Shown here piece after piece: positions 3,038 to 3,356 of a stretch of 64,000 bases of DNA (position 1 is the stretch's first letter; each line of letters opens with the position of its first letter). The stretch is from a virus, in IMG/VR virus record IMGVR_UViG_3300044712_000732, positions 317,776 through 381,775 of that record; one strand, written 5' to 3'. The translations under genes were made by a program, and so were the position numbers. Below the pieces are notes generated by a model that was given only the letters and a program-made list of their open reading frames with translations, was not told the origin of the DNA and ran no database searches.

Positions 3038-3065
3038 TTAATTTTGGTAATTCAATTTATTTTCG

Positions 3066-3073
3066 TATCTTTG
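3066..3073 (+). promoter_or_regulatory. Bacteroidota-type -7 box TATCTTTG, part of the conserved promoter-leader cassette 3055-3095
   Basis: Reads TTTTCGTATCTTTG...ATTTAAAACAACAAT ending at ATG 3096. A TTTG lies about 20 bp upstream. Confidence 0.55.
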
Positions 3074-3095
3074 TTTCATCATTTAAAACAACAAT

Positions 3096-3356
3096 ATGAA
3101 AACATTGAAAATTTGGAATGGTCGAGGTCATAGAAAATACTATAATTATCACATTTATGTTGCAGCGTATACTATTAAACAAGCTGTTGAATTAATAAAT
3201 ACTGCTTGTGATTCTTGGATTACATCAAGAGAAATTGCTGTATATTATTCAAAGGGATGTTGGGGAAATTCTATGGATGGAATTATACCAACTGAACCGT
3301 GTGTATACGTTTTAAAGGAATATGATTATAATAATAAACCAATAAGGGTATTATGA
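3096..3356 (+). CDS. Hypothetical protein, 86 aa
   Basis: Preceded by the promoter cassette. ORF. Confidence 0.5.
   Translation: MKTLKIWNGRGHRKYYNYHIYVAAYTIKQAVELINTACDSWITSREIAVYYSKGCWGNSMDGIIPTEPCVYVLKEYDYNNKPIRVL

Follow-up and report, generated by a model that had tools for sequence, protein, structure and literature searches.

Large lytic phages can carry families of early promoters, such as the roughly 40 of T4, which are extended and unusually well-conserved versions of the promoter read by the primary sigma factor of their host. The Bacteroidota promoter has been described as T-12 A-11 T-8 T-7 T-6 G-5, with a transcription start site 4-5 nt past the box and AT-rich motifs at -18 and -28 (PMC6847099); Baez et al. 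2019 refined its -7 consensus to TAHHTTTG and found the -33 element to be weak (PMC6847099). Short regulatory units of phages can also be mobile, as exemplified by the promoter-early stem-loops (PeSLs) of T4-type phages, mobile regulatory cassettes that combine a terminator stem-loop with an early promoter (Arbiol 2010 PMC2839356; Comeau 2014 PMC4122927). Here we analyse a family of repeated promoter-plus-leader cassettes in 64,000 nt of the virus record IMGVR_UViG_3300044712_000732 (hereafter the window), in which positions 3055-3098 of the plus strand read tttattttcgTATCTTTGtttcatcatttaaaacaacaatATG. In all likelihood, these cassettes are a family of strong promoter and leader units read by the host polymerase, probably early in infection.

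The window contains exactly eight full copies of a module of about 55-60 bp, all of them intergenic and each aimed at an ATG located 20-28 nt past the promoter box (Table 1). A previous reading made from the letters of the window (the sequence-only reading) had proposed at least eight copies of box and leader on both strands, and the ATGs found here are identical to the gene starts it had named. It had further described the modules as near-identical, which holds for a core of about 40 bp and not for the whole unit, since pairwise identity among the eight copies from -26 to the ATG averages 68% (range 55-79%). The copy at 19134 shares the promoter half and has a different leader (ATAAATACTAAAAATA). 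With 100 dinucleotide shuffles providing the chance expectation, the 19-mer leader with at most 3 mismatches was found 8 times in the window for 0.70 expected, a count reached by none of the shuffles. The exact 10-mer TTAAAACAAC occurs 10 times (0.76 expected) and the 14-mer box, with at most 2 mismatches, 20 times (7.1 expected). A profile hidden Markov model built from the eight copies recovers them, by construction, at E = 7e-14 to 1.7e-8, and the next-best match in the window has E = 0.12; this gap indicates a discrete family with eight full members.

All eight copies fall within the intergenic 14.4% of the window (0.144^8 = 2e-7) and face the adjacent gene. They are confined to the first 37 kb and precede eight unrelated genes, namely seven small ORFans and one helicase. 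In co-directional gene arrays the unit spans the whole inter-gene spacer of 53-65 bp, and three copies occupy divergent gaps. Searches of the cassette gene products against Pfam and PHROGs returned no match apart from the helicase, and no paralogy was found among the cassette genes; the conservation is therefore regulatory and not coding.

The promoter half of the unit comprises, in order, a weak -33 TTTG or TTG, a 19-20 bp spacer with a T-tract, TTTTCG, the -7 box TA(T/C)(C/A)TTTG, four variable nucleotides and the predicted +1. The spacer ends in AAT(T/A)T(T/A)TTTTCG, with T-runs over -18 to -15 and TTTTCG at -18 to -13. The -7 element TAnnTTTG, previously assigned to the Bacteroidota sigma-A type, is present in 8/8 copies and agrees with the refined TAHHTTTG (PMC6847099): the two central positions are never G, and the box reads TATCTTTG in five copies, TATATTTG in two and TACATTTG in one. 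The upstream TTTG of the same claim survives in part, as TTTG or TTG lies 19-20 nt upstream in five copies (3066, 6132, 7171, 19134 and 30281) and the remaining three have T-runs only. By itself, TAnnTTTG occurs 171 times in the window, where sigma-70 consensus sites are not enriched (199 versus 198 expected; 187 versus 178). Applying the published spacing, the predicted +1 is an A or a C and coincides with the first base of the conserved leader, so that the conserved segment would be the entire 5' untranslated region (5'UTR).

These predicted 5'UTRs are 16-24 nt long, contain 0-1 G and are A/C-rich around the core ATTAAAACAACAA. The conserved transcribed segment, (A)TAATTAAAACAACAA(CAA), is followed by 1-6 variable bases and then by the ATG. 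In Flavobacterium psychrophilum the median 5'UTR is 24 nt (PMC9723704), and the GeneMarkS-2 core motif (group B) for Flavobacterium genes that do not use a Shine-Dalgarno (SD) sequence is TAAAAA (PMC6028130); the cassette UTRs contain TAAAA. An A is found at -3 in 5/8, at -6 in 7/8, at -12 in 7/8 and at -13 in 6/8 of them, positions at which it experimentally stimulates translation in F. johnsoniae (Baez et al., PMC6847099). None of the tetramers GGAG, GAGG, AGGA and AAGG occurs in any of the eight leaders, and SD-like tetramers precede 4 of 111 window genes against a background of 5.8%, which bears out the A/C-rich leader lacking an SD sequence that had been noticed before. In the window-wide start profile, G drops to 1-6% and A climbs to 56-68% at -3 and at -10 to -13. 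Taken as motif counts and base profiles, the absent SD sequences, the A-rich starts and the unenriched sigma-70 sites correspond to what is described for Bacteroidota (PMC6847099; PMC6028130). Exact 13-mer leader cores (ATTAAAACAACAA) also occur at 5573-5590 and 12749-12762 of the minus strand, within open reading frames (ORFs) and without a proper box; the core at 5575, which a degenerate TATATTTA precedes, lies opposite gene 5090-5920 in antisense orientation. Being inside ORFs and devoid of a box, these two (5575 and 12750) were taken as partial or chance copies and rejected as family members.

Beyond the window, the strict cassette pattern (TTTTCGTAYMTTTG-N3-12-ATTAAAACAACAA) was found on one other IMG/VR contig, L001 (159 kb, 23.6% GC), which has no other DNA or protein likeness to the window. 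The same pattern retrieved 31 metagenome stretches, among which L129 (24.9% GC) looks like a relative and 26 all show a single conserved site of gut contigs with 44-61% GC. This gut site (L123, L125-L128, L130, L132-L140, L142-L150, L152 and L153) reads TTTTCGTACCTTTG-N4-AAATTAAAACAACAAAGGCCTA-ATG and opens a 30-aa ORF (MTLTTPTENDQPALLPHPNDSAKQPKYTSL); it is present in two copies in L145, and a conserved GC-rich segment precedes it in all loci but L139. A relaxed pattern, CGTAYMTTTG-N3-12-ATTAAAACAAC, searched in 185,579 reference genomes (one per species), gave 61 matches, 55 of them Bacteroidota by record title, in many families and at 32-58% GC, with an ORF of at least 40 aa opening within 20 nt in 39 of the 61.

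The looser pattern TTTG-N3-10-AATTAAAACAACAA, used on IMG/VR, was saturated with mostly chance matches and is informative only after filtering. The isolated-phage records matched included those of Flavobacterium (50), Prevotella Lak (14) and Bacteroides (8) phages, and also of E. coli (54) and Staphylococcus (14) phages. Coverage of the query reached 80% or more in only five records, four of them from Flavobacterium phages. Flavobacterium and Prevotella (Lak) phages provide the isolated-phage sequences that match best over the full length, and a Flavobacterium siphovirus match that was inspected reads TATATTTGTACCATAATAATTAAACAAATTATG. Multiple units were found on L103 (IMG/VR, 31.7% GC), where positions 141-8450 hold six near-identical TTTGG-N-TATCTTTGTATTGTCTAATTAAAACAA..ATG units on one strand within 8.7 kb, on L141 with four TTTGG-N-TTTTTTTCGTATCTTTG promoters, and on L226 with two to four cassettes in 4.9 kb. 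The promoter-leader design is thus not private to this phage: unrelated Bacteroidota phage contigs also have it, as do, in single copies, bacteria of the phylum.

Orthology was approached by fetching homologs of the cassette-6 product (163 aa) together with their upstream DNA. The ortholog in L228 (73% amino acid identity) is preceded at the same position by TTTG-N19-TATCTTTG...ATTAAAACAACAA..ATG. In L226 and L227 the cassette stands before an inserted 50-aa ORF instead of the cassette-6 ortholog, and in L221-L223 (62% identity to the cassette-6 product) the box is retained and the leader has drifted. A more distant homolog (43% identity) lies within an operon and has no promoter. At the level of aligned sequence, the cassette is conserved where the flanking DNA is not. 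In the relatives L226 and L228, an RNA ligase of the T4 Rnl1 type adjoins the cassettes.

The window itself has 25% GC and dense small genes, whose products include ThyA, RtcB, a Thg1-like tRNA-His guanylyltransferase, Sir2, radical-SAM/SPASM proteins, a ResIII/DEAD helicase, a TnpB-like protein and a sigma factor of the extracytoplasmic function (ECF) type. One protein of the window could be traced to a single JGI contig of 501,337 bp and to a Logan contig (SRR26046407), and the best DNA matches, all distant, are Prevotella Lak megaphages and other uncultured phages of 460-640 kb. The window looks like part of a megaphage-like genome of at least 501 kb, and the phage origin suggested previously fits this contig, the matches to Lak and other huge phages and the phage-typical gene content. 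No signal of stop-codon recoding of the Lak-phage kind was detected in the window. A megablast search of INPHARED with 20 kb found no close relatives, and tblastn gave distant matches only. The helicase yielded no relatives in IMG/VR, an exact look-up of its sequence found no record, and the relatives anchored on ThyA (72-69% identity; Gp23- and sheath-encoding contigs, one of 355 kb) are not syntenic and have 21-kb loci without cassettes.

Judged from its letters, the unit carries every published feature of a Bacteroidota primary-sigma promoter and of an SD-independent initiation region, the -33 element being partial. The cassette family is real and is an ordinary phage means of driving a gene set, probably an early one. 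In the mechanism that we favour, the RNA polymerase of the host, carrying the primary sigma factor (sigma-A/sigma-ABfr), would contact the -7 box TAnnTTTG together with the T-rich stretch around -18 and the weak TTTG/TTG at -33. Transcription would then start 5 nt after the G that closes the box, on the A of ATAATTAAAAC, as the published spacing predicts. The resulting 5'UTR of 16-24 nt, nearly free of G and made of UAAAAC and CAA repeats, would place an A-run about 10-15 nt before the AUG and usually an A at -3/-6. Leader features of this kind are known to favour SD-independent initiation on Bacteroidota ribosomes. Because the cassettes need only unmodified host polymerase, they would most likely form an early class, on from the entry of the DNA. 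The match to the host consensus and the nature of the cargo suggest that the cassette genes probably form one temporal class, and that this class is early; seven ORFans without family matches and a helicase fit such a class.

Several points weigh against this interpretation. The -33 element is weak or absent in 3/8 copies, and start site, promoter strength and timing are all deduced from sequence. The leaders fold no differently from other genes (-1.86 versus -2.61 kcal/mol at 120 other gene starts, p = 0.25), so the need for an unstructured leader cannot account for the retention of this sequence. Moreover, 46 other predicted promoters in the fetched Bacteroidota loci have diverse leaders, none sharing ATTAAAACAAC, which speaks against a general ATTAAAACAAC leader across the Bacteroidota. 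The conserved C positions and TTTTCG exceed the known consensus and lack an explanation; given the unexceptional folding and the diversity of ordinary Bacteroidota leaders, they indicate undescribed determinants of strength or a shared regulator. Lastly, the phage has an ECF-type sigma factor of its own, and host sigma-A is therefore not the sole candidate reader.

The cassettes could instead be mobile, an alternative that we regard as rather unlikely. They would then act chiefly as substrates through which homologous recombination moves small early genes around within a Bacteroidota phage or from one such phage to another, with promoter activity as a by-product or co-selected property. Such mobility would agree with the strict cassette of L001 and L129, which share no other DNA or protein likeness with the window, as well as with a cargo of unrelated ORFans in a region of frequent strand switches. 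An indel also abuts the cassette between relatives, with a 50-aa ORF in L226/L227 where L228 has the ortholog directly; the insertion of L226, however, has no second cassette flanking it. No stem-loop or terminator adjoins any cassette, the nearest lying about 190 nt upstream of cassette 8, and the terminator-promoter composite that defines PeSLs is therefore missing. In addition, recombination is poorly served by repeats as short (40-55 bp) and as diverged (55-79% identity) as these, and convergence on an optimum set by the host accounts for the sharing just as well, with single copies found before bacterial genes at 32-58% GC.

It is less probable still that TTTTCG and the leader ATTAAAACAACAA owe their retention to recognition by a phage factor that switches the whole class off or on together. 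Such a factor might be a repressor that binds DNA, a translational repressor or nuclease that binds RNA (compare T4 RegA/RegB) or an antisense RNA. At 25% GC the conserved C positions are conspicuous, and the leader is more uniform than low structure would require. In an ORF-poor region that bears tRNAs, a TTTG-N20-TATCTTTG promoter bracketed by an inverted repeat (Table 1) has the exact reverse complement of the 13-mer leader core at its predicted +1. The RNA predicted there would start at 44334 with GUUGUUUUAAUGAU, its first 14 nt antisense to the cassette leader, and would leave this 5' end free, fold into a long stem further on and run to a U-tract near 44437-44446, for a length of about 110 nt. 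The start regions of cassette genes make up 7 of the 12 best duplex energies with this RNA (-10 to -17.5 kcal/mol).

These observations are offset by others. Seven targets reach -12 kcal/mol or below, one of them being the locus of the RNA itself, and shuffled seeds yield 2.6 such targets on average and up to 11. The predicted RNA has a fold z-score of only -1.5 and no Rfam match, and no promoter hairpin joining leader and anti-leader was found in IMG/VR, where six matches proved to be unrelated hairpins. The leader drifts in the orthologous cassettes of L221-L223, which argues against a strict recognition site, and the anti-leader observation is post hoc. That the small RNA of 44334 pairs with the shared leaders upstream of the AUGs and shuts off the whole early class together is accordingly a very doubtful proposition. 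If true, the shared 5'UTR would be a common address tag, and the RNA an antisense analogue of T4 RegA/RegB for a host without an SD target. In the surrounding ORF-poor region (44040-46950), Rfam searches for non-coding RNAs recovered tRNAs only: a tRNA-Met at 45141-45213 and tRNA-like genes at 45829-45928 (100 nt, 47 bits) and, weakly, at 44570-44672 (26 bits). Two RNAs are each preceded by a copy of a 70-nt repeat (44739-44808 / 45071-45140), and 46630-46709 / 46825-46904 form an 80-nt direct repeat.

A reading of the cassettes by the phage's own ECF-type sigma factor in place of host sigma-A, with CGT at -14 to -12 as an ECF -10 element, is an alternative that we regard as very unlikely. This 163-aa protein (ORF 54040-54531, plus strand) matches the Pfam families Sigma70_r2 (35.6 bits) and Sigma70_r4_2 (52.5 bits), both above cut-offs. 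The ECF promoters of F. psychrophilum are marked by a CGT -10 box (PMC9723704), and a CGT lies directly upstream of the box and overlaps it in 5/8 cassettes. It is however missing from the other 3/8, whereas TAnnTTTG is invariant; by inspection, no AAC-type -35 element stands 16-17 nt upstream of CGT in any of the eight cassettes, and in many Bacteroidota this box and leader are also found in front of ordinary genes of the bacteria. As for chance similarity of low-complexity, AT-rich intergenic DNA, A/T-rich motifs do recur easily at 25% GC, as the number of TAnnTTTG boxes illustrates, but this explanation is refuted by the shuffles (0/100 reaching the observed counts) and by conservation at an orthologous site, and it is also at odds with seven orders of magnitude in E between the eighth copy and the next match and with copies that are all intergenic and correctly oriented.

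Besides the full cassettes, all five looser variants proposed earlier, with a box only, were recovered (13934 and 44322 on the plus strand; 26750, 33961 and 47241 on the minus strand). The start assigned to one of them, 44340, is no gene start (ATG ATA AAA TAA). About a dozen upstream regions without TAnnTTTG have TATATA(A/T) after a T-run, 12-30 nt ahead of the ATG, a combination that may represent a second, phage-specific promoter class; k-mer enrichment in the window gave no significant motif for such a class, the recurrence of T-run and TATATA being noted by eye.

Other features of the window are of interest in their own right. In the helicase driven by cassette 8, residues ~480-740 (the C-terminal third) match phrog_20046, and by tblastn this domain is repeated at several sites in Vibrio phages of about 247 kb and adjoins GIY-YIG genes in Rhizobium phages. 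A TnpB-like ORF (OrfB_IS605 with a Cas12f1-like TNB domain) occupies 11386-12627 of the minus strand in this phage genome. A set for RNA repair and modification comprises the Thg1-like gene (8953-9780, minus strand), the RtcB ligase (15470-16537, plus strand) and the Sir2-family deacetylase (50660-51346, plus strand). Tandem arrays of small paralogous genes lie on the plus strand at 41813-42664 (three copies, 48-67% identity) and 43054-43504 (two copies, 62%).

Table 1. Cassettes, box-only promoters and other regulatory features of the window (start sites, leaders and promoters are predicted)
Feature	Span	Strand	Promoter elements	Leader	ATG	Product or context
Cassette 1	3040..3098	+	-33 TTTG, 19-nt spacer, TTTTCG, box TATCTTTG 3066-3073	+1 at 3078, 18-nt UTR ATCATTTAAAACAACAAT	3096	86-aa ORFan
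Cassette 2	6098..6158	-	box TATCTTTG 6132-6125	20-nt UTR ACAATTAAAACAACAATCCA	6100	ORF 5936-6100, 54 aa, hydrophobic N-terminus; probably a small membrane protein
Cassette 3	7138..7197	-	-33 TTTG, 20-nt spacer, box TATCTTTG 7171-7164	19-nt UTR	7140	71-aa ORFan
Cassette 4	18651..18715	-	TTTTTA then box TATCTTTG 18689-18682	24-nt UTR with 4 extra nt	18653	186-aa ORFan; divergent from gene 18755-19108
Cassette 5 (variant)	19108..19164	+	full promoter half TTTTCGTATCTTTG, box 19134-19141	differing 16-nt leader ATAAATACTAAAAATA	19162	62 aa
Cassette 6	21480..21541	+	box TACATTTG 21506-21513	21-nt UTR ATAATTAAAACAACAACAATT	21539	163 aa
Cassette 7	30255..30316	+	-33 TTG; TTTCCA then box TATATTTG 30281-30288	21-nt UTR	30314	87 aa
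Cassette 8	36722..36785	+	box TATATTTG 36748-36755	23-nt UTR	36783	gene 36783-39017, 744 aa, ResIII/DEAD-type helicase
Hairpin with T-tracts	36502-36536					upstream of cassette 8, ~190 nt away
Box-only sigma-A-like promoter	13934..13941	+	TATCTTTG	unrelated to cassette leader		upstream of gene 13961
Box-only promoter	26743..26750	-	TATCTTTG			upstream of 25-aa ORF starting 26705
Box-only promoter	33954..33961	-	TTTTCATATCTTTG		33904
Box-only promoter	47234..47241	-	TATCTTTG			upstream of gene 46931-47212
Putative anti-leader element	44298..44446	+	TTTG 44298-44301, 20-nt spacer, TATCTTTG 44322-44329			no ORF
Inverted repeat	44308-44320 / 44334-44346		TAATTAAAACAAC / GTTGTTTTAATGA			brackets the 44322 promoter
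T-run and TATATA(A/T) sites		+				upstream of genes 2269, 10225, 28968, 41472, 55892
T-run and TATATA(A/T) sites		-				upstream of genes 11386-12627, 12691-13104, 21069-21437, 22698-22967, 29832-30122, 59253-59873, 60668-61045

The promoter and leader family described here, probably read by the host, yields a concrete and testable consensus for a Bacteroidota megaphage that is uncultivated and at least 501 kb in size. Its profile could be used to locate the starts of transcription units and likely early genes in the whole genome and in its relatives, and it supports the assignment of the host phylum independently of CRISPR or tRNA evidence. A compact (about 55 bp), apparently strong and SD-independent unit would also be a candidate expression part for Bacteroidota, where E. 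coli signals fail. The recurrence of TTTTCG (-18 to -13) and of the CAA-repeat leader in unrelated Bacteroidota phages hints at promoter or leader determinants that are still undescribed.

The kind of element, a host-type promoter followed by an SD-less leader, is already well known, and the cassettes can be set against four described systems. Like PeSLs, they are short conserved regulatory repeats flanking variable small genes, they appear in otherwise dissimilar phage DNA, and an indel lies next to a cassette between relatives. Unlike PeSLs, the cassette unit has no terminator stem-loop, and recombination at cassettes is only a proposal. With the SD-independent, A-rich ('Kozak-like') initiation regions of Bacteroidota (PMC6847099; Wegmann 2013 cited in PMC6028130), the cassettes share the absence of an SD sequence, the paucity of G, a TAAAA core, an A-run centred at about -10 to -15 and an A at -3 and -6 in most copies. 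They differ in that the UTR hardly varies over its whole length (ATAATTAAAACAACAACAA), its C positions being conserved, whereas typical host leaders are diverse.

The likeness to the sigma-A/sigma-ABfr promoters of Bacteroidota (Bayley 2000; Chen 2007; PMC6847099; Guerin 2021 PMC9723704) extends to the invariant T-12 A-11 ... T-8 T-7 T-6 G-5 box with no G at -10/-9, the weak -33 TTG(G) at 19-20 bp (in five of the eight copies), the AT- or T-rich -18 region, the 5'UTR of about 20 nt and the occurrence in reference genomes, which is mostly in Bacteroidota (55 of the 61 matches). To these the cassettes add a conserved TTTTCG abutting the box and a conserved transcribed leader, both outside the published consensus, and they also depart from such promoters in forming a multi-copy family in a single phage genome.

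In role, the cassettes are probably the counterpart, by analogy, of the multi-copy early promoters of T4-type phages. No report of promoter families in Lak-like megaphages was found in the literature library that could be searched. Both the T4 early promoters and the cassettes are multi-copy, extended host-type promoters placed before small ORFans, often in co-directional arrays, and unmodified host polymerase is the presumed reader at the start of infection. In contrast to the early promoters of T4, the cassettes use the -33/-7 and not the -35/-10 sigma dialect, and their conserved unit includes the complete 5'UTR.

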